From an uncultured Candidatus Saccharibacteria bacterium (GTDB taxonomy: Bacteria; Patescibacteriota; Saccharimonadia; Saccharimonadales; 2-12-FULL-41-12), in NCBI GenBank assembly GCA_964404795.1, contig CAYOLI010000003.1, forward strand, positions 31,621 to 95,620: a DNA stretch of 64,000 nucleotides, in the 5' to 3' direction. This document shows positions 1 through 62,368 of the stretch, piece after piece. A program made the position numbers and the translations under genes. Position 1 is the stretch's first letter, and each line of letters opens with the position of its first letter. The notes under the pieces were generated by a model. It saw only the letters and a list, made by a program, of their open reading frames with translations, searched no databases and had not been told where the DNA came from.

Positions 1-410
1 GTCGCATAATTGATAGTGGTGAAGATTTAGCCAATAAAGAGTCGCAGTTCGTTGAAGGGCTTATTGACCAGAATATTTTTGCTCCAGAATTTATTAACCG
101 TTTTGACGAAGTCGTTTTGTTTAGGCCACTAAACCAAGACGAATTATTGCAGGTTGTTGATTTAATTATCGCTACTTTAAACTTAAATCTGGATAATCAA
201 AAAATAAGTGTTGTTTTGAGCGAACCAGCCAAAAGGTGGCTGGTACAAAAAGGGTACGACTCAAAGCTTGGAGCACGTCCAATGAGAAGAGTTATTCAGC
301 GTTATGTCGAAAACATTATTGCCAAAAAACTTTTAGAACAATCAACGCGTTCTGGTGAAGCCATCAATCTTGATGTTGCAGATTTTGAACAGCAGGATAT
401 AGATGCATGA
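1..410 (+). CDS. C-terminal fragment of a Clp/Hsp100-family AAA+ ATPase (ClpC/ClpB-like); 5' end lies outside the window
   Basis: Frame 3 is open from the window edge. The translation contains PEFINRFDEVVLFRPL and LGARPMRRVIQRYVENIIAKKLL, typical of the Clp D2 small domain. Stop at 408-410. Confidence 0.8.
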   Translation, partial: RIIDSGEDLANKESQFVEGLIDQNIFAPEFINRFDEVVLFRPLNQDELLQVVDLIIATLNLNLDNQKISVVLSEPAKRWLVQKGYDSKLGARPMRRVIQRYVENIIAKKLLEQSTRSGEAINLDVADFEQQDIDA

Positions 411-1048
411 TAGCTATCGCTTTATCGATAGCTACTTTCTTTTTGCTACTTTTAATAGTAGAAATTTTATGGCGTAAAAAAACTCTTAGCGCGGAGCTGT
501 CTCGCAAAATAATCCATATTATTGTAGGAAGCATTATTGCATTTTGGCCATTTTTTATTGAATGGCGAGTTATCCAACTACTATCCATAATTCTATTTGT
601 AGGCATTACGCTCTCTTACAAACTGCATTTATTCAAATCAATTCATTCAGTTAAGCGTTCCACCAAAGGAGAATTACTATACCCAATAAGTATTGGGATT
701 TGCGCATTAATGCAACCAGCGCCTTGGATATTTACGGCCGCTATTTTACACTTATCTTTTGCTGATGGGCTGGCAGCTATTGTTGGCTCAAAAACAAATG
801 GTTGGACACAGTACAAGATTTTTGGTCATAAAAAATCGCTCGTTGGTAGCGGGGTATTTTTTATTGTTTCTTTATCAATAATTTGTGCAAGTTATGCTGT
901 ACTGGCTACTGATAATATAGCTGGCGTTTCGTCGGTAATGTTACTACTAGCTGCAGTTGGAATTTCGGTTGTCGAAAACATATCTTGGTATGGGCTAGAC
1001 AATTTAACGGTCCCCATTAGTGTGATAATCTTTTTAAGTGTTTTATAG
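407..1048 (+). CDS. Polytopic membrane protein of the CTP-dependent polyprenol/phytol/dolichol-kinase (CdsA-like) superfamily
   Basis: 213-aa ORF with several hydrophobic helices. Motifs SRKIIHIIVGS and FADGLAAIVGSK resemble this family. Overlaps the upstream stop by 4 nt. Confidence 0.55.
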   Translation: MIAIALSIATFFLLLLIVEILWRKKTLSAELSRKIIHIIVGSIIAFWPFFIEWRVIQLLSIILFVGITLSYKLHLFKSIHSVKRSTKGELLYPISIGICALMQPAPWIFTAAILHLSFADGLAAIVGSKTNGWTQYKIFGHKKSLVGSGVFFIVSLSIICASYAVLATDNIAGVSSVMLLLAAVGISVVENISWYGLDNLTVPISVIIFLSVL

Positions 1049-1051
1049 ATT

Positions 1052-1129
1052 TGGGGCGAGCGATGGGAATTGAACCCACGACCTTCTGGACCACAATCAG
1101 ACGCTCTAACCAACTGAGCTACGCCCGCC
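1052..1129 (-). tRNA. tRNA-His (anticodon GTG) with genome-encoded G-1 and CCA
   Basis: The reverse complement folds as a cloverleaf: G-1 opposite C73, acceptor GCGGGCG/CGCTCGC, anticodon loop TTGTGGT, T-loop GGTTCAATTCC, 3' CCA. Confidence 0.9.
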
Positions 1130-1176
1130 TCGACGCTTGAAAGAATAATTTATTAATAATACTTACAACAGGGGTG

Positions 1177-1205
1177 ATTATAGCCCAATGTAATCAATAT
1201 TACAA
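1177..1205 (-). promoter_or_regulatory. Putative sigma70-type promoter for tRNA-His
   Basis: Minus strand reads TTGTAA-N17-TATAAT. The -10 lies in the motif GCTATAATCACC, which is also found upstream of tRNA-Gly, about 48 nt upstream of the tRNA. Confidence 0.4.
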
Positions 1206-1634
1206 TTTTTGAATGTATCGCTTGAGCGTTGGCATGATAGACAAAAAGAACTCTCTATCTTTTTGGTGTGTTAGATAGTTCGTTACTTCGTCGATATTGA
1301 CCCACCTTGCTTCTGGATTTTCAGGATCTTCTGGGCTCAGAATTGTCTGATTTGTTATGTATAAAAACATAGTTATTCTTTTTATTTCCGTTTTGTCTTC
1401 TGGCTTATTATGCAGGGCAATGCGGTGTCTGTTGTAGGTGCCGATTTTCTTTATATAAACCAAATCATAAAGACCTGTTTCTTCTCTAATCTCGCGTAAA
1501 GCAGCAGTTCTTACGTCTTCATTTTCGTCAATTCCGCCCTTTGGCAATGACCAAGAGTTACCTTGTTGACTAACAATCGCAATTTTCCCTGATTTACTGA
1601 TGACGACTCCGCCGGCTGTTTCTCTGATTTTCAT
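1200..1634 (-). CDS. NUDIX hydrolase
   Basis: 144-aa ORF with a Nudix box, GGIDENEDVRTAALREIREETGL (GX5EX7REUXEEXGU pattern). Confidence 0.85.
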   Translation of the reverse strand: MKIRETAGGVVISKSGKIAIVSQQGNSWSLPKGGIDENEDVRTAALREIREETGLYDLVYIKKIGTYNRHRIALHNKPEDKTEIKRITMFLYITNQTILSPEDPENPEARWVNIDEVTNYLTHQKDREFFLSIMPTLKRYIQKL

Positions 1635-1644
1635 AATCCAAACA

Positions 1645-2012
1645 TGGTACCCCAGGAGGGACTCGACCTACCTTCGGCAGGCCCGAAACTTTATCTTTGA
1701 AAACATAGTTTTCAAGAGAAGATTTCCTTACGGATTGCTACCAGCAACCCTCACCCCGACCTTTTCTAGCGTCGGGTGTTCACTTTAATTACCACAACTA
1801 TCTCTTGTCAGACATCGAAGGATAATCATGGTACCCCAGGAGGGACTCGACCTACCTTCGGCAGGCCCGAAACTTCATCTTTGAAAACATAGTTTTCAAG
1901 AGAAGATTTCCTTACGGATTGCTACCAGCAACCCTCACCCCGACCTTTTCTAGCGTCGGGTGTTCACTTTAATTACCACAACTATCTCTTGTCAGATATC
2001 GAAGGATAATCA
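1645..2012 (-). repeat. Two tandem 184-nt units, each ending (tRNA strand) in the last 22 nt of tRNA-Arg(UCU); candidate tRNA-linked structured RNA
   Basis: Units run 1645-1828 and 1829-2012 and differ at only two positions (1692/1876 and 1813/1997). Each plus-strand unit begins tggtaccccaggagggactcga, identical to the tRNA-Arg 3' end at 2013-2034. Several strong hairpins are present and no credible ORF. Confidence 0.85.
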
Positions 2013-2089
2013 TGGTACCCCAGGAGGGACTCGAACCCCCGACCTTGACGTTAGAACCGTCTTGCTCTAATCCACTGAGCTACTGGGGC
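2013..2089 (-). tRNA. tRNA-Arg (anticodon TCT)
   Basis: Reverse complement is GCCCCAGTAGCTCAGTGGATTAGAGCAAGACGGTTCTAACGTC...GGTTCGAGTCCCTCCTGGGGTACCA. It folds as a cloverleaf with anticodon loop GTTCTAA and encoded CCA. Confidence 0.85.
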
Positions 2090-2093
2090 AAAA

Positions 2094-2168
2094 TGGTGCG
2101 GGTGGCGAGAATCGAACTCGCATCACTTGCTTGGAAGGCAGGTATATTAGCCATTATACGACACCCGC
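2094..2168 (-). tRNA. tRNA-Gly (anticodon TCC)
   Basis: Reverse complement is GCGGGTGTCGTATAATGGCTAATATACCTGCCTTCCAAGCAAGTGATGCGAGTTCGATTCTCGCCACCCGCACCA. Anticodon loop is CTTCCAA. It closely resembles classical bacterial glyT-type tRNAs. Confidence 0.9.
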
Positions 2169-2198
2169 TAGTGCACATTTGCTTCAATAACAGAGGTG

Positions 2199-2227
2199 AT
2201 TATAGCACAAAAAAGATTACTTGTCAG
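2199..2227 (-). promoter_or_regulatory. Putative sigma70-type promoter of the tRNA-Gly/tRNA-Arg transcription unit
   Basis: Minus strand reads CTGACA-N17-TATAAT (TGTGCTATAATCACC), about 30 nt upstream of the tRNA-Gly 5' end. Confidence 0.55.
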
Positions 2228-2298
2228 AATGCAAATAAATAAAACAGCTTTATACATCTAATGTCTTTAAGATACAATAAGTACATTCGAGGAGAGTT

Positions 2299-3579
2299 TT
2301 GGTGAAAGACAAAATAGTTAAAAAACTTATTGATGCCGAAAATAAGCGTCAACGCGAGGGGCTAGAGCTAATTCCTAGTGAGAACTATGTCAGTAGAGAC
2401 GTTTTAGAGGCCATGGGCAGTGTGTTTACAAATAAATATTCCGAAGGATACCCATTTAAACGTTATTACGGAGGCCAAGAGTATACGGATCAGTTAGAGC
2501 AATTAGCAATTGACAGAGCAAAGCAGTTATTTAAGGCCGATCATGCCAATGTACAACCCCACTCAGGTGCTCCAGCCAACGAAGCAGTATATAGTGCTTG
2601 GCTTGAGACAGGCGATACTGTGCTAGCAATGGATTTAAGTCACGGAGGTCATTTGACTCATGGGGCGCCAGTTACAAGAAGCGCCAAGTTATACAACTTC
2701 GTTCGTTATAAGATGAAAGACGTAAATACCGGAGAGATAGATTACGAAGAGCTAAAGACGTTAGCAAAAAAGTATAAACCCAAAATAATTTTAGCTGGCT
2801 TTAGTGCCTACCCAAGAGAGTTGGATTACGAGAAGTTTGCACAAATTGGCAACCAAGTTGGTGCATTGTTAATGGCGGATATGGCGCATATCGCAGGATT
2901 GATTGCTGGCGGGGTAGCCAAAAATCCATTCGACTATGGCTTTCATGTTATAACGACTACAACACACAAAACACTTCGTGGTCCACGGGGCGGATTGATT
3001 TTATCGAAGGGGATTGTTAGTAATCCACTAAAGGCCCCTGAAAAAACTATAGAAAACATACCAACATTAATAGACCGAGCAGTTTTTCCTGGTATGCAAG
3101 GAGGCCCTCACGAACATATTATCGCAGCGAAGGCCGTGGCTTTTGGCGAGGCATTAAAGCCAGAGTTTCGTGTGTATGCTAGGCAAGTGGTAACCAACGC
3201 AGAATATCTCGCAAAAGAGCTCATCCGGAGAGGTTTCATGCTCATCACTGGTGGAACAAGTAACCACCTCATACTGGCAGACGTACATTCTAGTTTTGGT
3301 ATTGATGGTAATGAGGCAGAAGTGACTCTCGACAAAATTTGTCTTACACTCAACAAAAATACAATCGCTGATGATCCACTGCCACCTTTTAGGCCAAGCG
3401 GAATACGCCTGGGCACACCGGCGATTACTACTCGAGGACTTGTCGAAAAAGATATGACAAAAATCGCTGAATGGATGAAATTGGCGCTAGAGAATAGGCA
3501 TAATGAAAAAATACTTAACAAGTTAAGTGTCGAAGTAAAAAATTTCGCAAGACAGTTTCCTTTGCCGAGCGATAGTTAG
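2299..3579 (+). CDS. glyA: Serine hydroxymethyltransferase
   Basis: 426-aa ORF with ELIPSENYVS and the PLP-lysine motif TTTTHKTLRGPRGG. GGAGAG RBS just upstream; TTG (2299) or GTG (2302) start. Confidence 0.95.
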   Translation: MVKDKIVKKLIDAENKRQREGLELIPSENYVSRDVLEAMGSVFTNKYSEGYPFKRYYGGQEYTDQLEQLAIDRAKQLFKADHANVQPHSGAPANEAVYSAWLETGDTVLAMDLSHGGHLTHGAPVTRSAKLYNFVRYKMKDVNTGEIDYEELKTLAKKYKPKIILAGFSAYPRELDYEKFAQIGNQVGALLMADMAHIAGLIAGGVAKNPFDYGFHVITTTTHKTLRGPRGGLILSKGIVSNPLKAPEKTIENIPTLIDRAVFPGMQGGPHEHIIAAKAVAFGEALKPEFRVYARQVVTNAEYLAKELIRRGFMLITGGTSNHLILADVHSSFGIDGNEAEVTLDKICLTLNKNTIADDPLPPFRPSGIRLGTPAITTRGLVEKDMTKIAEWMKLALENRHNEKILNKLSVEVKNFARQFPLPSDS

Positions 3580-4601
3580 ATTATCTCTGGCTCCTGAACA
3601 AGATCGACATCGAATTTCTTTTTAGCTGCCTGCAAGATAGCATCTCTAAAAGCTATTAGCGAAGCAGTAGAAGATGCCCTTTCGTTTACCAGTACCAAGG
3701 GTTGTTTTTCCCAAACTGCCATGCCAGTTGTTGGTTCGTGATACCCCTTTAAGCCCAGTGCTTCCATCATCCAGGCCGCAGAAATTTTAACCGTATCATC
3801 GCTAACATCCCAGTAGACAATACCGGGGTACTGCTCTTTTAGCTCTTCCAGTTGCATACGTGGAATAAAGGGGTTTGTAAAGAATGACCCACAATTTGCT
3901 ACTTCCCTTGGATCTGGTAATTTATTGGATCTAATATCGATTACCGCCTGTCTAATTGCTGTTGGGGTGTATTGTTTAATTTCATGTTCGTTCAAATAAT
4001 TTTGTACAGCAGAGTAAAAGGGTGGCATTGGTGGTTTATTGCTTAGTGTTAAAGTAACCGAGGTTATAAAAAAGCGCCCTTTGTCTTTGGTTTTGAAGCG
4101 ACTAGTTCGGTAATCTAGGTCGCAGTCAATTTTTGGGATGGTAACCATCTTTTTTTCTAGTTTGTCATATGCTTGTACACAAACCAATACGTCTTTTATC
4201 TCGCGTCCGTAAGCACCAACATTCTGCACGGGAGTTGCGCCAGCCAGCCCCGGAATTAGAGATAATTGTTCTATGCCTGAGAGGTTTTTATTTGTGGTTT
4301 GTTCGACGATATCGTCCCAAACTTCTCCTGCACCAATAGTTAAAAATGACCCATCGCCTTGCTCCTGAAACTCAACACCTTTAATGTTGTTTACCAAAAC
4401 CAGCCCATCATAGCCACTGTCTTGCCAAATGATGTTACTGCCAGCCCCAATCATAATGACATTTGCAATTTTGTTACTTTCGGCCCAGTTCAAAGCCGTT
4501 TCTATGTCGTTTATGTTGTTTATTTGTTGCAAGTATTTGGCCATGCCTCCAAGACGCATTGTCGAATAACCCTTAAGTGAAATATTTTCCTGTGGTTGCA
4601 T
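3576..4601 (-). CDS. murB: UDP-N-acetylenolpyruvoylglucosamine reductase
   Basis: The ORF extends to 4709, but conserved MurB sequence starts at the internal ATG at 4601 (MQPQENISLKGYSTMRLGG...). FAD-binding region is IMIGAGSNIIW. The long form would overlap the divergent gene. Confidence 0.9.
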   Translation of the reverse strand: MQPQENISLKGYSTMRLGGMAKYLQQINNINDIETALNWAESNKIANVIMIGAGSNIIWQDSGYDGLVLVNNIKGVEFQEQGDGSFLTIGAGEVWDDIVEQTTNKNLSGIEQLSLIPGLAGATPVQNVGAYGREIKDVLVCVQAYDKLEKKMVTIPKIDCDLDYRTSRFKTKDKGRFFITSVTLTLSNKPPMPPFYSAVQNYLNEHEIKQYTPTAIRQAVIDIRSNKLPDPREVANCGSFFTNPFIPRMQLEELKEQYPGIVYWDVSDDTVKISAAWMMEALGLKGYHEPTTGMAVWEKQPLVLVNERASSTASLIAFRDAILQAAKKKFDVDLVQEPEII

Positions 4602-4640
4602 TGCTATTAGTATAACCGAAATCAAATTAACTAGTTTGTA

Positions 4641-5228
4641 GTGAATATTAAAACGTGGTCTTGCCAAAGGGACTCGTTGAGGCGTAACATAATAGATGTG
4701 AAGCAACAAAACAAAGGCCCATATGAGGCACTAGGGCGAAAAATAAAACACCTGCGCGAACAATGGCGCCAGTCGCTAGTGGAGGTTTCGGGCACTCTAG
4801 AGATAGATGAGTCAACTTTGCTTTCGATTGAAAAGGGACAAATTATGCCTAGCGAAAATGTTTTGAATATGCTCATAAGTCATTTTCTATTAACCGACGA
4901 ACAGGCAGACGAATTACGTAATTTGGCTGAACATTATAATGCACAGATGGGCGATGCTTTAATGGGTGGCATCGAAGACATGTTGATGAAGCAAATAGTG
5001 ATGTATCTACCGGTCGACAATAAAGCAATTTTTACAGACAGTATGAATGCTACAGTAAACGATCATGGGGTTGTTTTGCAGTTCATGCAAAACGGGCCAG
5101 ACGGCAAGCCCTTACCAATAGGTCGGGTCGGTATGAGCAGAGAGCATGCCGAGAGAATGATAAAAGTAATTCGCTCTACACTGGATCAGCACGACAAAAC
5201 TAACGATTCGAAACTACTTCCTTCCTAA
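4641..5228 (+). CDS. XRE-family helix-turn-helix protein with a DUF3467-like C-terminal domain
   Basis: HTH region is EALGRKIKHLREQWRQSLVEVSGTLEIDESTLLSIEKGQ. C-terminal region is VLQFMQNGPDGKPLPIGRVGMSREHAERMIKVI. The true start may be the GTG at 4698. Confidence 0.6.
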   Translation: MNIKTWSCQRDSLRRNIIDVKQQNKGPYEALGRKIKHLREQWRQSLVEVSGTLEIDESTLLSIEKGQIMPSENVLNMLISHFLLTDEQADELRNLAEHYNAQMGDALMGGIEDMLMKQIVMYLPVDNKAIFTDSMNATVNDHGVVLQFMQNGPDGKPLPIGRVGMSREHAERMIKVIRSTLDQHDKTNDSKLLPS

Positions 5229-5245
5229 AGCCAATTTATAATATC

Positions 5246-5274
5246 TAGAAAATAAATGGGTAGCGTGTTAAAAT
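5246..5274 (+). promoter_or_regulatory. Possible promoter for the tRNA-Arg/tRNA-Lys pair
   Basis: Extended -10 TGTTAAAAT at 5266-5274, with a weak -35 TAGAAA 17 nt upstream. It lies about 23 nt before the tRNA-Arg 5' end. Confidence 0.35.
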
Positions 5275-5296
5275 TACCCCTGTATTTTGGCTTTTA

Positions 5297-5373
5297 GCAC
5301 CCGTAGCTCAGTGGATTAGAGCACTGGTCTTCGGAACCAGGTGTCGTAGGTTCGAATCCTACCGGGTGTACCA
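5297..5373 (+). tRNA. tRNA-Arg (anticodon TCG)
   Basis: GCACCCGTAGCTCAGTGGATTAGAGCACTGGTCTTCGGAACCAG...GGTTCGAATCCTACCGGGTGTACCA. Anticodon stem CTGGT/ACCAG, loop CTTCGGA, CCA encoded. Confidence 0.9.
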
Positions 5374-5381
5374 ATAGTATC

Positions 5382-5458
5382 GGGCCATTAGCTCAGCTGG
5401 TTAGAGCACCTGCCTCTTAAGCAGGGTGTCCAGGGTTCGAGTCCCTGATGGCCCTCCA
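5382..5458 (+). tRNA. tRNA-Lys (anticodon CTT)
   Basis: GGGCCATTAGCTCAGCTGGTTAGAGCACCTGCCTCTTAAGCAGG...GGTTCGAGTCCCTGATGGCCCTCCA. Anticodon loop CTCTTAA, CCA encoded. Confidence 0.9.
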
Positions 5459-5528
5459 ATAATAAACAAATTTAATTATTTTAGTGAATGGCGTCGGAAA
5501 ACTGGAAATATATTTTTGAAAGAAAAAA

Positions 5529-5828
5529 TTAAAACAAGAAAATTGGAGGGTCAAAAAGATGGCCTATTATATACGCACCGATGATAACTCCGACGGTGTC
5601 AAACACAATATCTGAAAGCGAGTTTCTAATTGACTCATATCCGAAAGTAATACCGATTTTACCTAATAGTGGCGATAGTATGAGTACTTCTAGTGGCTCC
5701 CAAAGAACTAATATAGCTAGCGCATAAAATGGAGACATTATCCAGCCAAGTAGAACACCCATCAACAAATGAACGATGCTCCAGTTGTCAAACAGATTGC
5801 CATTTCGGGTGTTTTGGTTCTTGTCCAT
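5529..5828 (-). CDS. Small hypothetical membrane protein
   Basis: 99-aa ORF with three hydrophobic helices and no competing ORF. No family recognised. Confidence 0.5.
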   Translation of the reverse strand: MDKNQNTRNGNLFDNWSIVHLLMGVLLGWIMSPFYALAILVLWEPLEVLILSPLLGKIGITFGYESIRNSLSDIVFDTVGVIIGAYIIGHLFDPPIFLF

Positions 5829-5923
5829 GACTAAATCCTATACCTGGAGTATGCATACTACAATATGGTTTTGAAAATTCTGTATCTGGCAACAGAGGTA
5901 GATGACTGATATTATGGAAATGA

Positions 5924-6727
5924 ATGAAACTATTAAATGGATCAGATATTGCTGGTTTTGTAAAAGAAAGGCAAGCTCGATCGGTAAGGGGGCTTATTCA
6001 GGCACATAGCATCTACCCTAAGCTCGCAATCATTCAGACTAAAGACGATCCCACAATCGATACTTACGTTCGGCTTAAGAAAAGGTATGGCGAGGATATT
6101 TCGATCTCCGTTGAAGTTTACAGGATTGACCAAAAAGACGCGCTGTCACGAATTAAAAAACTAAATAGCGACAAATCGGTCCATGGCATTATTGTGCAAT
6201 TGCCACTAGAGAATATATCTCAAACAGATGAAATATGTAATGCCGTTGACCCAAAAAAAGATGTTGATGCGCTTGGAAAAGATGCTATCTTTGAGCCAGC
6301 TACACCTCTGGCAATACTTTGGTTGCTTGCAGGGTACAACATAGATTTGAAAAAAAAGAATATTCTACTCATTGGTAAAGGCCGACTTGTTGGGGGGCCA
6401 CTAAAAAGAATGTTAATAGCTAGTGGCCATAGGGTATCCATAGCCGATAGATCTACAAAAGAACTTAATACGTTAAGTATTAGTGCTGATGTCATAATTA
6501 CAGCCACCGGGAGTCCAAATGTTTTACGCTCGGATATGATAAAAAAAGGAGCAGTTGTAGTCGATGCAGGTGTTGCAAGCGAGGGAGGGCAGACACTGGG
6601 CGACGTTGCCGCCGAGGTCTATAACAGAGATGATATTATTATTACGCCTACAAAAGGTGGAGTTGGCCCGTTAACAATTAGTGCATTATTTGAGAACGTA
6701 ATTACTGGGGCGAAAAAGCAATTATGA
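5924..6727 (+). CDS. folD: Bifunctional methylenetetrahydrofolate dehydrogenase/cyclohydrolase
   Basis: 267-aa ORF with GIIVQLPL, ATPLAILWLL, a Rossmann segment LIGKGRLVGGPL and a C-terminal GGVGPLTISALFENV. Confidence 0.9.
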   Translation: MKLLNGSDIAGFVKERQARSVRGLIQAHSIYPKLAIIQTKDDPTIDTYVRLKKRYGEDISISVEVYRIDQKDALSRIKKLNSDKSVHGIIVQLPLENISQTDEICNAVDPKKDVDALGKDAIFEPATPLAILWLLAGYNIDLKKKNILLIGKGRLVGGPLKRMLIASGHRVSIADRSTKELNTLSISADVIITATGSPNVLRSDMIKKGAVVVDAGVASEGGQTLGDVAAEVYNRDDIIITPTKGGVGPLTISALFENVITGAKKQL

Positions 6728-7377
6728 ACGCCAAAGTAGGCGTTTTCGATTCTGGAATTGGGGGGCTATCTGTTGCCAATGCTATAAAAAACAACTTAGA
6801 AAATGTTGAGGTAATTTTTAGAAACGACCAACAACACATGCCTTACGGCGATAAGGGCTTAGAGGAAGTACTCTCTTTGTCTTTGCCGATAGTAAAATCG
6901 CTAGAGAATGACGGTTGCCAGGTGATAGTACTAGCTTGTAATACTATCAGTACTACTCTACTAGAACATATTGAAAAACACATAAAAGTACCCTTGATTG
7001 CCGTCGAGCCGATGATCTTACAAGCATCGCAAAAAACAAAGAGTAACAAGATAACGGTGTGCGCCACACCCAATACTTTAGCTAGCAGTCGATACCAATA
7101 TTTAATCGAAAAATATGCAAAACATTTGAGTATTTTTGAGCCAGATTGTAGCGACTGGGCCTACTTAATAGAAAAAAATGAGATGTACAAAGAAACAATC
7201 AGTGATTGTATTTTGCCATCAATTTCATCAGGGTCAGACGTAGTAGTTTTAGGGTGTACACACTATCACTGGATAGATAAAGAGGTAAAATTGATAGTTG
7301 GCCATAAAGCCAGTGTACTACAGCCAGAACAGCTTATTGTAGATCAGGTTCGGGAAGCTTTAAAACGGCTTGATTGA
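6724..7377 (+). CDS. murI: Glutamate racemase
   Basis: VFDSGIGGLSV plus the catalytic Cys motifs LACNTIS and LGCTHYHW. Start overlaps the folD stop (ATGA). Confidence 0.9.
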   Translation: MNAKVGVFDSGIGGLSVANAIKNNLENVEVIFRNDQQHMPYGDKGLEEVLSLSLPIVKSLENDGCQVIVLACNTISTTLLEHIEKHIKVPLIAVEPMILQASQKTKSNKITVCATPNTLASSRYQYLIEKYAKHLSIFEPDCSDWAYLIEKNEMYKETISDCILPSISSGSDVVVLGCTHYHWIDKEVKLIVGHKASVLQPEQLIVDQVREALKRLD

Positions 7378-8659
7378 ATTGGTCTCCTCTATCTTGGTAG
7401 TTTTTAAAGAGTCCAAAACTAGCACAAGCGGGAGATAGCAGTACTACGTCGCCAGCAAGGGCATGTTCAGATGCAGTACGAACAATCTGGTGCATAGTTG
7501 TGCTTGTAAGTAGTTTTATCTTGTTTTCTGGTATGTCAGCTCCTTGAAGTGCTTCCATTAGTTTTGGTCCGGTGTTACCGATCAGAATAATAAATCTTAT
7601 ATCGCTATTGGCAATCAACTTTACAAGTTCTGAATAATCGGATCCCTTATCTGAACCACCTAAGATTATAACTTTCGGGGAACTAAATGATTTTATAGCA
7701 ACCATTGCCGTTTCTGGGGTAGTTCCAAAAGAGTCATTGTAGTATTTTACGCCGTTTAGTTCGCGGATAAACTCGAGTCGGTAATGCAAGCCCTTAAAAG
7801 AGGTTATAACCGAGTTTATTGCATCTAAGTCTTTTGTAATTTGCCAAACGACAGTTACTGTCGCGCAGATATTCTGCCAGTTATGTTCACCAAGTAATCC
7901 TACCTCACTTAGAAAGCAACAAGTTTGTCCATCGATAACAATTTTATCTCCGTCTACATATGCGCCAGGTGGTCTGTAGTAGGGTATTTTTTGTCCTATC
8001 GAAGAAGAGCCAATATCTGTTGAATCAAGGTTATCGCTGTAGTAAATTGCAATATCCGAAGTTGTTTGGTGTAAAAATAGTTGTCGTTTAGCATCTTTGT
8101 ATTCTTGGTAATCTGAATGCCAATCTTGGTGTTCAGCTGCCACCATAAGACAAACTGCGATATGGGGTGAGAACTGCAAGTCAATTAGTTGAAAGTTAGC
8201 GAGTTCCAATACTACAAAATCTTCTGGCTGTATATTATTCTTTAGCATGTCTAGTGGTGGAGTACCAATGTTGCCTCCTAGATGCACCCGTTTACCGCTC
8301 GCTTCAAGCATTTTTGTTATTAATGTACTGGTAGTTCCCTTACCCTTAGTACCGGTTACACCGATAATATTTTTGCTAGGGCAAACTCGGAAAAATTCGT
8401 TTGTAACCGTTGTTACCCTATCTGATACACTTGGATTCTTCTTGCTGATGTCGTCTGGGTGTACACTTGGGCTTCTAACTATTAAATCGAAGCGGTCAAG
8501 GCCTGATAAGTAATTGTCTCCAAGCTGTGAATCTACGTCAGACGGTAGTTTTATATTGGCGTTTTCGTCGCAAATAGTTATTGTGTTGTTTGCGTCTTTA
8601 CTCCAGTACTCTAGTGCGGATTGACCCTGAGAGCCGAACCCCAATATAGCTATTTTCAT
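7334..8659 (-). CDS. murD: UDP-N-acetylmuramoyl-L-alanine--D-glutamate ligase
   Basis: 441-aa ORF with an N-terminal Rossmann segment ILGFGSQGQS and the Mur ligase P-loop GVTGTKGKGTTSTL. Its 3' end overlaps the murI 3' end. Confidence 0.9.
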   Translation of the reverse strand: MKIAILGFGSQGQSALEYWSKDANNTITICDENANIKLPSDVDSQLGDNYLSGLDRFDLIVRSPSVHPDDISKKNPSVSDRVTTVTNEFFRVCPSKNIIGVTGTKGKGTTSTLITKMLEASGKRVHLGGNIGTPPLDMLKNNIQPEDFVVLELANFQLIDLQFSPHIAVCLMVAAEHQDWHSDYQEYKDAKRQLFLHQTTSDIAIYYSDNLDSTDIGSSSIGQKIPYYRPPGAYVDGDKIVIDGQTCCFLSEVGLLGEHNWQNICATVTVVWQITKDLDAINSVITSFKGLHYRLEFIRELNGVKYYNDSFGTTPETAMVAIKSFSSPKVIILGGSDKGSDYSELVKLIANSDIRFIILIGNTGPKLMEALQGADIPENKIKLLTSTTMHQIVRTASEHALAGDVVLLSPACASFGLFKNYQDRGDQFNQAVLKLPEPDLQ

Positions 8660-8665
8660 ATCAAA

Positions 8666-9034
8666 TTAGTTATTCAGTTTAGATTTTACTAGCTCGGCAA
8701 CCTGCCTAGGAGTCATATCCGCCTTTAGTATAAAAGCGCTGACGCCAAGATTTTCCATTGATTTTGGAATTTCTTGCTCCCCCATGTTTGTTAAAACGAT
8801 TACTTTTATATCTTTTCCCCACGGTGTCTCGCGTAGTTTCTGTAGCATTTCGTCCCCAGACATTTCGGGCATCATCAAGTCCAACAGAATAATATCGGGT
8901 TGCATTTGCTCTACAAGCTCTAGGCCAAACTTACCGTTTTCCGCGGTTTCGACATCGAACCCTTCGGTTTCAAATTTGATGCGATACATTTGTGCAATCG
9001 CGTGGTCGTCTTCAATTATGGCTATTTTAGGCAT
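8666..9034 (-). CDS. Stand-alone response-regulator receiver (CheY-like) protein
   Basis: 122 aa with IIEDD, the phospho-acceptor context DIILLDLMMP, and VIVLTN...K. No output domain. Confidence 0.85.
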   Translation of the reverse strand: MPKIAIIEDDHAIAQMYRIKFETEGFDVETAENGKFGLELVEQMQPDIILLDLMMPEMSGDEMLQKLRETPWGKDIKVIVLTNMGEQEIPKSMENLGVSAFILKADMTPRQVAELVKSKLNN

Positions 9035-19538: not shown

Positions 19539-19604
19539 GATATCTGTTTTTGGTAAACTTTAACGGTGGAAGAGTAGGTTGGGTTTACAACTAGTATAGA
19601 TTTT

Positions 19605-19663
19605 GGCCTCATCGTGCAGGCGGTTAGGACACCGGGTTTTCATCCCGGCAATAGGGTGAGGCC
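19605..19663 (+). pseudogene. T-arm-less copy of tRNA-Glu(UUC), either a pseudo-tRNA or a tRNA-like domain
   Basis: Matches tRNA-Glu at nearly every position over the first 52 nt (five differences, all within the D-arm). It then lacks GTTCGATTCCCCT and continues directly with TGAGGCC, a perfect complement of its own 5' GGCCTCA. No CCA. About 20 nt of the upstream flank is also duplicated. Confidence 0.75.
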
Positions 19664-19766
19664 CGCCAGTGGCGGGGCGCAAGGGAGCCAACTCTTGCAA
19701 ACTGGTTTGCAAAGATGTTGCGTTTGCGCTCGCCGAAGGTGAGTCGGTTCAGAATCGAACCCTCAT
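19661..19766 (+). ncRNA. Candidate structured RNA, homologous to the core of the 184-nt units at 1645-2012
   Basis: Hairpins at 19661-19678, 19693-19715 and 19729-19743, plus 19740-19765. They align with hairpins in the tRNA-Arg-linked units, with compensatory base-pair changes and shared bulges. Confidence 0.6.
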
Positions 19767-19788: not shown

Positions 19789-19863
19789 GGCCTCATCGTC
19801 TAACGGTTAGGACACCGGGTTTTCATCCCGGCAATAGGGGTTCGATTCCCCTTGAGGTCACCA
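19789..19863 (+). tRNA. tRNA-Glu (anticodon TTC)
   Basis: GGCCTCATCGTCTAACGGTTAGGACACCGGGTTTTCATCCCGGCAATAGGGGTTCGATTCCCCTTGAGGTCACCA. Anticodon loop TTTTCAT. Possible promoter TTCAGA-N17-TACAAT at 19748-19776. Confidence 0.9.
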
Positions 19864-29489: not shown

Positions 29490-29882
29490 TGGTGGAGCTG
29501 GCGGGTACTACCCCCGCGTCCATCGGATTTACTGTGACTAGCCGTCTTCGTACATAGTTTATTTAAAAAAGTTTCTTTACTATTTCGTTAATAAAAATAA
29601 ACAAAAACTAACAAGATAGTGCACTCAATATTTTTTAAGAGCAATCATTTGAGAGACGATACTCCGTAGCCAGTAGATATGACACACAAACTAATTCTTT
29701 CTGGCGAGAATTAGGTGTGGCTGTAGTGATTAAGCTACAGCTGGTGCGAAAGCTGGCATGGTAAACATGCTAGCTAATCGCTGAGTAAATGATTTTGCAT
29801 TTATTCGGTTTATCTATAACGCTGATAAGCGGTACGCAAGCTAATCTGTAAATGTCCAATGTCGAGCTTAAAATTCAGCCCC
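29490..29882 (-). ncRNA. ssrA: tmRNA (SsrA)
   Basis: 5' end is GGGGCTGAATTTTAAGCTCGAC. 3' end is GGACGCGGGGGTAGTACCCGCCAGCTCCACCA, a tRNA-Ala-like acceptor with CCA. Internal tag frame at 29798-29730: GCA... AKSFTQRLASMFTMPAFAPAVA, then TAA. Confidence 0.9.
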
Positions 29883-59563: not shown

Positions 59564-62368
59564 GTGGACTATATCTCAATTAAAGGTGCCAGAGAACACA
59601 ATTTAAAAAATATTACTGTCGATATTCCGCGTAATAAATTTGTGGTAATTACGGGCCTTAGTGGTTCAGGCAAAAGTAGTTTGGCCTTTGACACTATTTA
59701 TGCCGAAGGTCAGCGAAGATATGTTGAATCCCTGTCTGCTTATGCTCGTCAATTTCTTGGTCTGATGGAAAAACCGGACGTAGATCAAATAGACGGGTTG
59801 AGTCCTGCAATTTCAATTGATCAAAAGTCAACTAGTCGAAATCCAAGAAGTACAGTCGCTACCGTTACAGAAATTTACGACTACCTAAGATTATTGTTTG
59901 CTCGAGTTGGGGTGCCCCACTGTCCAGTATGTGGCAAGGTTGTTAACAAACAGACTCCAAGAAAAATTATAGATCAAGTTGTTGCAGACAATACTGGAGC
60001 AAGGTTACTGGTCTTGTCGCCAATTGTAGTTAGTAAAAAAGGAGTATTCGAGCACATTCCAGAGCAGTACAGACGTCTTGGGTTTGTTCGTGCCAGAGCA
60101 GACGGTGTGGTTTTTTCGCTGGACGAATGGCCACAGCTTGAAAAAAACCAAAGACATGACATCGAGATAGTAGTTGATCGTTTGGTGGTCGATAAGGATA
60201 CTCAGGGCAGGTTGGTCCAAAGTGTTGAGCAGGCGCTCAATATGGCTGATGGTCGTTTAATGATTGTTAATGCCGAAACTAACAAGAGCCACACATACTC
60301 GCTCAAGTATGCTTGTGTAGATCATCCTGAAATATCTATTCCTGAGCTCGAGCCACGGACCTTTAGCTTCAATAATCCACAAGGCGCGTGCCCAGTTTGC
60401 ACGGGTATTGGTAGTCGTTTAGAGGTTGATCCCGAACTGGTTATTCCAAATGGTAGATTAACTATAGCTGAGGGTGCAATTAGGCCATTTAATCGAATTA
60501 ATACGGATGCTTGGTATATGAAAAAAATGCAAGCGGTGGCTGATAAATACGGGTTTTCACTACATATTCCGACTGCTCAACTTAAGAAAGATGATCTAGA
60601 TAAAATTCTTTATGGTACCGACAAGCAAACGTATAGCGTAAAATTGGGCACTGGCAGGGCGTTTGATACAACTTATGAAGGAGTGATTCCAAACTTGGAG
60701 CGTCGTCATAAAGAGACTGACAGCGATTTCATGCGCCGAGATATCGAACGATTTATGCAAGAAAAGCCGTGTCACGCTTGCAATGGAGACAGGTTGAAGC
60801 CCGAAGTGTTGGCGGTTACGGTAGCAGATCAGTCGATCATGGACATCTGTAGATTATCAATCGATAATGCTACAGCTTTTTTTGGAGAACTGAAACTTAA
60901 TGATAAAGATACAAATATTGCAAAACAAATACTAAAGGAAATTAATGCAAGGTTATCCTTTTTGCAAAACGTTGGCCTTAATTATTTAAACCTACTTCGA
61001 AGTGCGGCGTCTCTAAGCGGTGGCGAAGCGCAGAGAATACGTCTGGCAACCCAGATAGGGAGTGGTCTCCAGGGCGTGCTTTATGTACTAGATGAGCCGA
61101 GTATTGGCCTTCATCAAAGAGATAATGAACGGCTTATATCGACTCTTAAGCACTTAAAAGAGTTAGGTAACAGCGTTTTAGTTGTAGAACACGATGAAGA
61201 AACCATTCGCTCTAGTGACTATGTGCTCGATATTGGTCCAGGTGCTGGGGTAAAGGGTGGAGAAGTTATAGCCATTGGTACGCCAAGCGAGGTTGCCAAA
61301 GATCCAAATAGTGTCACTGGTCAATTTTTGAGTGGCGTTAGGTCCATTGTTGTTCCAAAGAAACGGCGGAATGGAAATGGTAAACATCTAATAATTAAAG
61401 GTGCCAGAGAAAATAATCTAAAAAATATATCAGTAAGCATTCCTTTAGGCGAGCTAGTTGTTGTTAGTGGCGTTTCTGGGTCTGGGAAAAGTAGTTTAAT
61501 AAACGATATCTTAGCCCGCGAGCTACAAGCTAGATTAATGAGGGCACAAGTAACTCCTGGTCGACATGATGATATTGAAGGTATCAAGCATCTCGATAAA
61601 GTAATTGTGATTGATCAATCTCCGATCGGTCGAACCCCAAGAAGTAATCCGGCAACTTATACCGGGCTATTTACACCGATCCGTGAACTTTTTTCCAGCT
61701 TGCCAGAGGCAAAATTAAGAGGTTATAGTGCTGGTAGATTCAGCTTTAATGTTAGAGGTGGTCGATGCGAAAACTGTGCCGGCGATGGAATAATTAAGAT
61801 CGAAATGCATTTTTTACCCGACGTATATGTGCCTTGTGAGGTTTGCAAGGGCAAACGTTATAACCGAGAAGCACTCGAGATACATTATAAAGGCAAAGAC
61901 ATCAGTGAAGTTTTAGATATGACCTGCGAAATGGCCTTGGAGTTTTTTGAAAATATTCCTGCTATTGCGAGAAAGCTAAAAACCTTGGTTGATGTTGGTC
62001 TTGGGTATGTAAAGTTGGGTCAATCGGCAACAACACTAAGCGGTGGTGAAGCGCAACGTGTCAAACTAGCAACAGAGCTATCACGTCGTCCAACTGGTAG
62101 AACTTTATACATATTAGACGAACCGACCACCGGGCTACACATTGCAGATGTCGAGCGACTACTAAAGGTTTTGCAAAAGCTAGTGGATGCCGGTAATAGC
62201 ATTGTCGTTATCGAACATAACCTAGATGTTATTAAGTCGGCAGATCATATTATTGACTTAGGCCCAGAGGGTGGTGCTGGTGGCGGCCAAGTTGTTGCTG
62301 AAGGCACGCCAGAAAAAATTGCAAAGAGTCAGTCACACACCGGTAAATTTTTAAAACAAGTACTGTAA
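59564..62368 (+). CDS. uvrA: Excinuclease ABC subunit A
   Basis: [28 protein letters not shown], Zn fingers (CPVCGK, CPVC, CHACNG, CENCAG...CEVCKG), a second P-loop [10 protein letters not shown] and two LSGGE signatures. RBS GAGAGGAGAAGGGG. Confidence 0.95.

Follow-up and report, generated by a model that had tools for sequence, protein, structure and literature searches.

A conserved, strand-specific structured element at a fixed position of truncated tRNA copies in Saccharibacteria

In tRNA genes, the segment between the T-loop and the CCA end is a known integration sublocation, as Williams reportedly set out in 2002. Integrase-less elements are also known to accrete in tandem at tRNA sites (CIMEs; PMC5704250), and Patescibacteria carry group I introns in the anticodon loops of their tRNAs and in the T-loop of their tmRNA (PMC13011429). 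In the literature, we found only group I introns at position 35/36 of Patescibacteria tRNAs; elements of the kind reported here are undescribed. We analysed a 64-kb stretch of Saccharibacteria DNA (hereafter named the window) in which two 184-nt repeats lie beside a tRNA-Arg(UCU) gene. These repeats are copies of an undescribed, strongly structured element of Saccharibacteria, about 92 nt long.

On the minus strand, the order at the locus is tRNA-Gly(UCC), tRNA-Arg(UCU), unit 1, unit 2 and a NUDIX ORF (Table 1). ARAGORN and the ORF calls return the same order as the first-pass annotation. The latter had also proposed an exact period of 184 nt with boundaries at 1645, 1829 and 2013, and Tandem Repeats Finder agrees (period 184, 2.1 copies, 99% matches, 1643-2034). 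The two differences that had been counted between the units are at unit positions 16 (A/G) and 137 (G/A). Both units terminate with TCGAGTCCCTCCTGGGGTACCA, identical to positions 56-77 of tRNA-Arg, in keeping with the claim that the last 22 nt of the tRNA are reproduced. The only ORFs over the units are antisense ones of 62 and 76 aa, and the early view that no plausible ORF is present stands. Unit 2 abuts the start codon region of the NUDIX gene, with no terminator-like site between them.

Table 1 Positions of the features at the tRNA-Arg(UCU) and tRNA-Glu(UUC) loci of the window
Feature	Position	Strand	Basis or remark
tRNA-Gly(UCC)	2094..2168	(-)	ARAGORN; opens transcription unit
tRNA-Gly(UCC) promoter CTGACA-17-TATAAT	2227-2199		Consensus match
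tRNA-Arg(UCU), intact; T-arm and 3' end copied in units	2013..2089	(-)	ARAGORN
Unit 1, 184 nt, 3-prime type: spacer, inverted T-arm copy, core, tRNA 3' end copy	1829..2012	(-)	
Unit 2, 184 nt, near-identical tandem copy	1645..1828	(-)	Core at 1664-1756
Promoter-like site CTGACA-18 nt-TAAAGT, unit 1	1966..1995	(-)	Consensus match only
Promoter-like site CTGACA-18 nt-TAAAGT, unit 2	1782-1811		Consensus match only
Pre-core of unit 1, hairpin-forming	1938..1967	(-)	
Core of unit 1: GGGUGAGG, P1, GUAAGG junction, long bulged P2, P3	1848..1940	(-)	99 bits
Copy of tRNA-Arg nt 56-77 (T-loop C56 to CCA), end of unit 1	1829..1850	(-)	
Copy of tRNA-Arg nt 56-77, end of unit 2	1645-1666	(-)	
NUDIX ORF, beyond unit 2	1200-1634	(-)	
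Pseudo-copy: tRNA-Glu(UUC) upstream 20 nt and nt 1-51, altered D-arm (GTGCAGGCGG)	19583..19656	(+)	5-prime type frame
Third, diverged core	19654..19746	(+)	83 bits
Post-core: TCGGTT-CAG-AATCGA hairpin, then ACCC	19744..19762	(+)	Read from sequence
Intact tRNA-Glu(UUC), downstream of 5-prime type unit	19789..19863	(+)	ARAGORN

In unit 1, the pre-core contains GTGAACACCCGACG, an inverted copy of segment ~47-58 of the intact tRNA-Arg, and, after a loop, GGTCGGGG, which copies the variable loop and the 5' strand of the T-stem in direct orientation; together, the two segments make a hairpin. The inverted copy in the Arg units, GAACACCCGAC, is 11 nt long and 91% complementary to GTCGGGGGTTC of the tRNA (2033-2043). 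P3 of the unit 1 core corresponds to GGCCUGCC-GAA-GGUAGGUC. The hairpins listed by the first-pass annotation are recovered as the pre-core hairpin, the apex of P2, and P3. On the other hand, its "GTAA tetraloop stem" is the P1/P2 junction in the covariation-supported fold, and P1 had not been singled out.

A repeat search also detected a 36-nt duplicate of the middle of tRNA-Glu(UUC), located 183 nt upstream of this gene. It belongs to a truncated copy of the tRNA that holds a third core, and the segment AATCGAACCC after this core is an inverted copy of the T-arm of the intact tRNA-Glu. A covariance model built from 12 cores and run with the filters off finds just these three known cores in the window. 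An acceptor stem within the unit was considered at the Glu locus, where TGAGGCC and GGCCTCA could pair in the core of the window, and rejected, as the pairing is not conserved at the homologous loci L045 and L046.

Relatives were retrieved via homologues of the NUDIX gene and of the pyruvate-kinase gene that lies at the tRNA-Glu locus. In addition, one genome per species was searched with a motif pattern derived from the invariant blocks. All eight loci detected in the genome collection are true members and each adjoins a tRNA gene; seven belong to Saccharibacteria/Saccharimonadales MAGs and one to an unclassified MAG. In the metagenome scan, six of the ten matches are true members, the other four (L029, L031, L032, L034) being chance matches in conserved marine coding sequence. 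The covariance model revealed extra, more diverged copies within the fetched loci. Besides the cores of the window, the collection scans and protein look-ups yielded 18 further distinct ones. The 23 distinct core sequences in total, which correspond to 22 distinct copies and one same-species allelic variant (L017), came mostly from one sequence pattern and are therefore skewed to the commonest variant. All known cores are from Saccharibacteria-type contigs and nearly all adjoin a tRNA gene. The tRNAs beside them represent 12 anticodons (Arg-UCU, Arg-CCU, Glu-UUC, Glu-CUC, Gly-UCC, Gly-CCC, Val-CAC, Val-UAC, Gln-CUG, Gln-UUG, Ser-GGA and Lys-CUU), and one further copy is an orphan, without an intact tRNA alongside. 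As far as sampled, the family is confined to Saccharibacteria. Lack of the unit in all relatives, combined with lack of a transcript, had been put forward as evidence against the early readings of the repeat; relatives do carry it.

The core consensus, ~92 nt long, consists of GGGTGAGG, a hairpin, GYAAGGRA, a long bulged hairpin and then GCCGAAGGTRRGTCG. Among the copies of the window, the hairpin stems vary yet remain complementary. RNAalifold, applied to 12 sequences aligned with MAFFT, gives three hairpins comprising 35 pairs: P1 (11 pairs with an internal A/G mismatch, 3-nt loop), P2 (16 pairs with one-nucleotide bulges that are conserved, CUNG loop) and P3 (8 pairs, loop of GAA or GGA). 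The linkers between them measure 0-2 nt. In the alignment of the 23 cores, which was fitted to the covariance model and favours structure, standard pairs occupy 96.3% of the cells and both-side changes are observed at 26 of the 35 pairs; the independent MAFFT/RNAalifold analysis of the 12 sequences gives the same helices. None of 500 shuffles reached any of five measures, and sliding the 3' partners cuts pairing to 29-47% (maximum 46.5%). Finding the same core in 23 distinct sequences with covariation goes far beyond chance.

Two G.U pairs of P3 are near-invariant (columns 79/95 in 20 of the 23 cores and 83/91 in 22), and the 23 cores contain 73 G.U cells overall versus 30 unpaired cells. Because G.U pairs become A/C mismatches on the opposite strand, and because the model scores the cores of the window at 83-99 bits on the tRNA sense strand and at 9-12 bits on the antisense strand, one strand folds. 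According to the covariance model, this is the strand transcribed with the tRNA. A folded single DNA strand would be an alternative, as G.T pairs are tolerated there too. Overall, the compensatory changes, the single fold and the single strand are those expected for a conserved structured RNA.

In all cases, the core takes the place of the T-loop within an incomplete copy of the adjacent tRNA (hereafter named frame), and it reads in sense orientation. Two layouts are observed. In the 3-prime type (window Arg, L009, L011, L013, L014, L027b, L033a/b, L036, L045b), the intact tRNA is followed by a spacer, often with a terminator-like hairpin, then by an inverted copy of nt ~44-60, a short loop, a direct copy of nt ~44-52, the core, and nt 56 to CCA. 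In the 5-prime type (window Glu, L008, L012a, L015, L026, L027a, L045a, L046), 0-20 nt of upstream sequence and tRNA nt 1-52 precede the core, which is followed by nt 56-62, 0-3 nt, an inverted copy of nt ~50-62, a spacer and the intact tRNA. As read from the sequence, the two layouts are circular permutations of one junction design. The units are typically ~175-190 nt long (184 nt and 183 nt in the window; 181 nt in L036) and lack terminal inverted repeats. The duplicated tRNA segments span 22 nt to about 72 nt, and no frame contains both the 5' and the 3' part of the tRNA.

The junctions follow one rule in 17 of the 19 units: the T-stem G-run is copied minus its last G, TGAGG comes next, and the tRNA resumes at C56. 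This holds for runs of 3, 4 or 5 G's, and precise junctions are seen beside tRNAs with 11 different anticodons. These exact junctions imply that the core replaces nt 53-55, namely the last G of the T-stem and T54/T55. Excising the core could not regenerate a tRNA, since nt 53-55 are missing. The T-arm homology flanking the core is short, and the inverted copies are those of an uninterrupted T-arm. Reading of the sequences suggests that such a copy can pair with both T-arm halves flanking the core, which would produce a four- or five-way junction; single-sequence folds support this T-arm-closed junction in part. In L009 and L033, unrelated inserts occupy the same T-loop position, so that frame formation may be a host process independent of the core. 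The L033 arrays are made of cassettes that each end in the tRNA 3' end, one of them with a cargo ORF. Taken as a whole, the family is a new one, conserved, structured and strand-specific, located at a fixed position of truncated tRNA copies.

For at least two frames, the same locus is occupied in more than one species. In L036, where the NUDIX protein is 61% identical, a single 3-prime type unit is present at tRNA-Arg(UCU), and its tRNA-end copy bears the acceptor change of its own genome (CCCGGGG; CCTGGGG in the window). The tRNA-Arg(UCU) site is empty in L040 and L012. At the tRNA-Glu(UUC) site upstream of pyruvate kinase, a 5-prime type unit is found in the window, in L045 (the same genome as L036) and in L046, and no unit is found in L047. 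Pyruvate kinase is ~70% identical among the species that have the Glu frame. All three frames have the derived D-arm CGTGCAGGCGG, where the intact tRNA has CGTCTAACGG, and the same post-core hairpin, indicating that the Glu frame arose in one event before these species diverged. P1 of their cores differs by compensatory changes; in orthologous frames, such differences may reflect core replacement, not selection in situ. An extra 3-prime type unit lies downstream of the same tRNA-Glu in L045.

Orthologous cores are 58-77% identical, yet identities of 88-93% are seen between cores that sit at different tRNAs and belong to either layout, within one genome or between genomes. For instance, the Arg core in L036 shares 88% identity with the 5-prime Glu core of its own genome and 89-91% with tRNA-Gln and tRNA-Gly cores of other genomes, and the 5-prime type Gly core of L012 is 93.5% identical to the 3-prime type Gln core of L013. 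In L010, the tRNA fragment after the core mismatches the adjacent tRNA-Arg(CCU). These comparisons show core sequences that depart from locus orthology and, judging from the identities, point to old frames between which cores have been exchanged.

Contigs of the window's species, ~99.8-100% identical over several kb and about 99.9-100% identical outside the units, carry one or two units: one in six contigs, two in two contigs and in the window, while two more contigs break inside the unit. Variation in copy number at tRNA-Arg, which the first-pass annotation had proposed to look for, is seen among related contigs as assembled. The two-unit arrangement was assembled independently in L018 and L025, and when the L017 and L018 comparisons were mapped to unit positions, all SNPs fell inside the units. 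As a unit is flanked by direct repeats of 22-27 nt, it is expected to amplify or collapse by unequal exchange, and the simplest account of the tandem pair would be unequal exchange across the tRNA-end repeats. Alternatively, one-unit contigs could result from short-read collapse.

Promoter- and terminator-like matches give weak indications of how the units may be transcribed. In the Arg units, the best sigma-70-like match, CTGACA-18 nt-TAAAGT, scores 9/12, and the -35 block TCTGACAAG is common to these units and to the tRNA-Gly promoter; the resemblance to this promoter suggested in the first pass holds for that block. At 5-prime type loci, a recognisable tRNA promoter precedes the pseudo-copy, so that the unit would be transcribed as a tRNA leader. 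The tRNA-Glu of the window has its own TTCAGA-17-TACAAT match, with the -35 inside the post-core. Many 3-prime type units have a terminator-like hairpin of their own downstream. Several 3-prime type units lie behind such a hairpin and show no convincing promoter of their own, and RNA from these units would thus need read-through. GC skew is positive throughout the window. The Arg units (minus) and the Glu unit (plus) therefore fold on opposite replication strands, which speaks mildly against a mechanism that depends on the lagging-strand template.

The flanks sampled were the 64 kb of the source genome and up to 20 kb in other genomes. No transposase-like ORF was found near the units in these flanks. 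Recurrent ORF "families" within 2.5 kb of the units turned out to be false ORFs translated from the core itself. The genuine neighbours that recur are a small GIY-YIG protein (two loci, truncated in one) and an Xer-like tyrosine recombinase (two loci, the gene being within ~1.3 kb of the units). They are too few for a link, and no protein is consistently near the units. At one locus, a 2H phosphoesterase (LigT-like) gene lies between two units.

We compared the element with known families. At the gathering threshold, Rfam finds six tRNAs and one tmRNA in the whole window. With Rfam 15 at E<=10, positions 1000-2400 give three tRNAs and weak tRNA-overlapping matches, with nothing within the core; the sole match that reaches into a unit is tmRNA_permuted (1935-2121; 12.5 bits, with the gathering score at 47), itself an extension from the real tRNAs. 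A match to Rfam or to an IS had been considered adverse to the early readings, and none was found. The unit has no blastn match in the phage and plasmid collections. A loose motif scan of IMG/VR returned seven chance matches in GC-rich coding sequence, without the central hairpin or a nearby tRNA, and a second scan with a P1-based pattern returned zero. As for CIMEs or other tRNA-site integrative elements, direct repeats do bound the unit (the 22-nt copy of nt 56-77). However, no related autonomous integrase element appears near the units, in the phage and plasmid collections or in IMG/VR with two patterns, and the 88-93% identity of cores at different tRNAs disagrees with one element lineage per tRNA. 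A MITE or IS is inconsistent with the lack of terminal inverted repeats, the lack of a duplication of fixed length and the replacement of three target nucleotides. A group I or other tRNA intron is inconsistent with truncated frames that lack nt 53-55 and with the silence of Rfam within the core; moreover, 92 nt is too small for a group I core. In a type III toxin-antitoxin (ToxI-like) system, neither a NUDIX hydrolase as the downstream gene nor mostly single units would be expected. By eye, the hammerhead, HDV-like, twister-sister, hatchet and k-turn motifs do not fit the junctions, in agreement with Rfam, and the geometry of the archaeal BHB intron mismatches them. tRNA-primed or target-primed reverse transcription was rejected too, since it fits the 3-prime type and not the 5-prime type of the same orientation. 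Between P1 or P2 and the flanking tRNA, no guide-like complementarity was found.

We propose a joint reading, to which we give about an even chance of being correct, in which the module would act as an RNA with tRNA-derived ends, made within or next to a tRNA transcription unit. In the window, RNA could also start at the promoter-like site inside the unit and perhaps run into the NUDIX gene. The module would borrow its ends from the tRNA, either the CCA end or the tRNA 5' end, and would fold compactly into a four- or five-way junction, with helices derived from the T-stem closing it. Such a junction would probably be a protein-binding scaffold, or a decoy for a factor that recognises the T-arm. 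Cores would spread and be homogenised through the flanking tRNA and T-arm homology, by gene conversion or homing between frames, and between species possibly by transformation. New frames would be created when a duplicative event hits the palindromic TTCGA of the T-loop, leaving an inverted T-arm copy and sparing the intact tRNA. The two units of the window would result from recent unequal crossover or slippage between the 22-27-nt tRNA-end repeats around a single unit. We infer the recombination route from the patterns described above. That frames have been kept for so long suggests that the host benefits, although replacement of cores, instead of host benefit, could also uphold the structures. 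The tRNA-linked small RNA imagined by the first-pass annotation gains from the strong conserved structure, from its restriction to the sense strand of the tRNA and from its location within or beside tRNA transcription units.

Other readings share part of this evidence. One possibility, which we think rather doubtful, is that the core is itself an RNA-structured, T-loop-specific mobile module inserting at nt 52/56, with the target duplicated and the tRNA never destroyed; it could insert as RNA or as a folded single strand, by its own catalysis or with a host enzyme that binds the T-arm. An unlikely view dispenses with mobility altogether and holds that repeated tRNA duplication turned one copy into a T-loop-expanded RNA of a host-functional small RNA family, similarity between cores being ordinary descent plus selection. 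This fits the Glu frame, whose altered D-arm and post-core hairpin are conserved in three species, as well as the conservation of the Arg unit in L036 and a fold upheld everywhere. But the same 92-nt core cannot credibly have arisen separately at 12 different tRNAs unless it was transferred; the tree of the cores disagrees with the orthology of the loci, presence is patchy among close relatives, and inverted T-arm scars are found at every frame. Site-specific integration scars are distinctly unlikely. Here, a tyrosine integrase targeting the tRNA T-loop would have left CIME-like miniatures or decayed phages or islands, the tRNA fragment being attR/attL, the core an arm by attP, and the tandem a product of accretion. 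The direct repeat from T-loop to CCA, the L033 cassettes and their cargo ORF, the two nearby tyrosine recombinase genes and the known accretion of integrase-less elements (PMC5704250) are all in its favour. The related att-like insertion of the first-pass annotation keeps its 22-nt repeat, which is real and explains the tandem amplification and the differences in copy number; but the module is located at the T-loop of a truncated second copy, not after the tRNA, there is a mirror-image 5' layout, no link to an integrase is seen and the frames are old. Against integration scars in general, integrases are not a consistent neighbour of the units, phage and plasmid collections give no match and IMG/VR no true match with two core patterns, and the constant size of ~175-190 nt is unlike random deletion remnants. 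Furthermore, the 5-prime type would demand a tRNA 5' part on each element, pre-adapted fragments of 12 different tRNAs would be needed, and covariation with conserved G.U pairs is unexpected for double-stranded arm sites.

A non-autonomous transposon that uses single-stranded DNA or RNA guidance (IS200/IS605-PATE-, IS91- or IS110-like) and targets GTTCGA of the T-loop would have its hairpins recognised by a transposase encoded elsewhere. It would account for precise, orientation-specific junctions without a fixed target duplication, for folding on one strand only, for the similar 8-bp hairpins with 3-nt loops of P1 and P3, and for inverted copies of an uninterrupted T-arm, as if the core had entered one strand. 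Rfam is expected to cover transposon-associated RNA motifs. We nevertheless consider such a transposon very unlikely, given that nothing in Rfam scores within the core at E<=10, no unit has a transposase nearby, three nucleotides of the target are replaced where a clean insertion would be expected, units lie on both strands of one replichore, and intragenomic copies are diverged, unlike recent bursts. A new self-cleaving or self-ligating ribozyme that would process tRNA co-transcripts, or join itself to tRNA halves, is highly improbable: the compact multi-helix junction has invariant nucleotides, the core is always fused to the tRNA at fixed nucleotides and a LigT-like gene lies between two units, but this last link is a single case, no Rfam ribozyme family resembles the core, and its removal would restore no tRNA. 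Lastly, an assembly artefact or chance repeat is almost certainly the wrong explanation. Short-read contigs do break inside the repeat and some have a single unit, but the two-unit arrangement assembled independently in L018 and L025, and the family is present in many independent assemblies, which refute an artefactual origin of the unit itself.

If the proposed reading of an RNA module spreading between tRNA-derived frames is true, Saccharibacteria carry widespread, previously unseen structured non-coding elements built on fragments of tRNA genes, in ultrasmall, reduced genomes where useless DNA is expected to be shed. Such elements would provide a new RNA fold with very clear covariation and a way of exploiting the T-loop, the most conserved sequence in any genome, without killing the host. 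If the core proved instead to be a mobile module that inserts at the T-loop, it would represent a class of bacterial elements without a protein gene and with a universal, essential target. tRNA annotation in candidate-phyla genomes is affected by the partial tRNA copies and by repeat-induced contig breaks. In addition, persistent frames with exchanged cores would offer a small, tractable system for the study of gene conversion or homing in reduced genomes.

Among described systems, CIMEs share with the element the tRNA 3' direct repeat starting at the T-loop, the intact tRNA that is kept, and tandem units that end in a tRNA end. In contrast, there is no integrase and no larger element here, the unit is only ~180 nt long, and it displays a covarying single-strand structure, a mirror-image 5' form and an inverted T-arm copy. 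REP/BIME sequences, Rickettsia palindromic elements and Correia/ERIC-type MITEs are likewise short, non-coding, multi-copy and patchy, with hairpins in transcripts; unlike them, the present element has no terminal inverted repeats or fixed duplication, has a single defined target in a tRNA copy, and forms a three-hairpin junction with conserved nucleotides, not one long palindrome.

The group I introns of the same phylum (PMC13011429) are also structured RNAs at a precise loop with a homing-like distribution. However, the element described here sits in a truncated copy with the intact gene alongside, and splicing cannot yield a tRNA. As in the split or permuted tRNA genes of Nanoarchaeota and algae, separately encoded tRNA halves are joined to extra structured sequence, but the intact tRNA is present, so the halves are unneeded, and most tRNAs have one type only. 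Finally, YrlA Y-RNA-like RNAs, viral tRNA-like structures and tmRNA also have tRNA-derived ends or handles on another structured RNA, and the weak, sub-threshold Rfam matches to such modules lie over the real tRNAs. In the Saccharibacteria element, in contrast, the T-loop itself is replaced and one unit holds no acceptor stem.

Loci L016-L025, which are contigs of the window's own species, are ~99.8-100% identical to positions 1-9000 of the window across 2-5.6 kb. For L017 and L018, each site that differs from the window falls within a 184-nt unit (at unit positions 16, 96, 103 and 137), which makes the units the region's most polymorphic sequence. The unit repeat also interrupts short-read assemblies: contigs L021 and L022 of the same species, as well as L037 and L038 of a relative, start inside a unit, with the NUDIX gene ~150 nt downstream of that start.

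Two inserts other than the core (the ~92-nt three-hairpin element) were observed in truncated tRNA copies. The ~75-nt insert of L009, located between tRNA-Val(UAC) and a core unit, differs from the core and is not detected by the core covariance model; it occupies the same T-loop position with the same layout, and the short motifs CGCAAGGAG and GCCAGCTGGC are common to both. The ~85-nt AT-rich insert of L033 has no relation to the core and is preceded by an inverted T-arm hairpin. Since this insert lies within a tRNA-Lys fragment, the array that follows tRNA-Lys in L033 is made of four segments, each closed by the tRNA-Lys 3' end. Between two units of the 3-prime type (intact tRNA, then a unit ending in the tRNA 3' end), L033 carries an ORF of 162 aa that belongs to the 2'-5' RNA ligase / 2H phosphoesterase superfamily (Pfam PF13563, E 5e-13). 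After this ORF, 10 nt of the tRNA-Lys end are repeated once more.

In the window and in L010, L012, L036 and L040, tRNA promoters have in common the extended motif TGCTATAATCACCTCTGTT, which comprises the -10 element and the discriminator and is conserved between the species. Terminator-like hairpins are found downstream of tRNAs and units (L013, L014, L009, L033 and L045). In hairpins after tRNA genes, the outer stem pairs with the encoded CCA end and an A-rich trailer, e.g. CCACCAATATTAAAAACCC...GGGTTTTTAATATTGG.

Elsewhere in the window, neither a unit nor a duplicated end was observed next to the tmRNA gene, and the 51-nt direct repeat probably corresponds to two homologous domains within a single coding region.

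Coordinates of features in the window and in loci from other assemblies
Feature	Locus	Positions	Strand	Remarks
TGCTATAATCACCTCTGTT promoter site	window	2199-2227
TGCTATAATCACCTCTGTT promoter site	window	1177-1205
TGCTATAATCACCTCTGTT promoter sites	L010, L012, L036, L040			upstream of tRNAs
tmRNA gene	window	29490-29882	minus	standard one-piece, 79 bits
51-nt direct repeat	window	59578-59628 and 61393-61443		80% identical, spacing 1815 nt
~75-nt insert	L009	2262-2350	minus	inverted T-arm copy, GGGGTTCG, insert, CCCCCTCAGCGCCCACCA + terminator
~85-nt insert	L033	1630-1790		between GAGGGTTC and CCCCTCCTGGCCCTCCA of tRNA-Lys fragment
162-aa ORF	L033	2035-2523		= L028:270-758
Small GIY-YIG nuclease-domain ORF	L033	1204-1449		directly upstream of unit-carrying tRNA
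Small GIY-YIG nuclease-domain ORF	L015	2352-2543		directly upstream of unit-carrying tRNA
Recombinase gene	L010	5118-6065

GIY-YIG ORFs next to unit-carrying tRNAs were found in two cases only, L033 and L015, and none in the window. The L015 ORF appears truncated at the boundary of a unit of the 5-prime type (tRNA 5' part, core, intact tRNA). At tRNA-Arg(CCU) in L010, the tRNA fragment of the unit mismatches that tRNA, and ~530 nt separate the tRNA from a gene for a XerC/XerD-like tyrosine recombinase (Pfam Phage_integrase, E 5e-45). A fragment homologous to this recombinase is present in L026, ~1.3 kb from a core.
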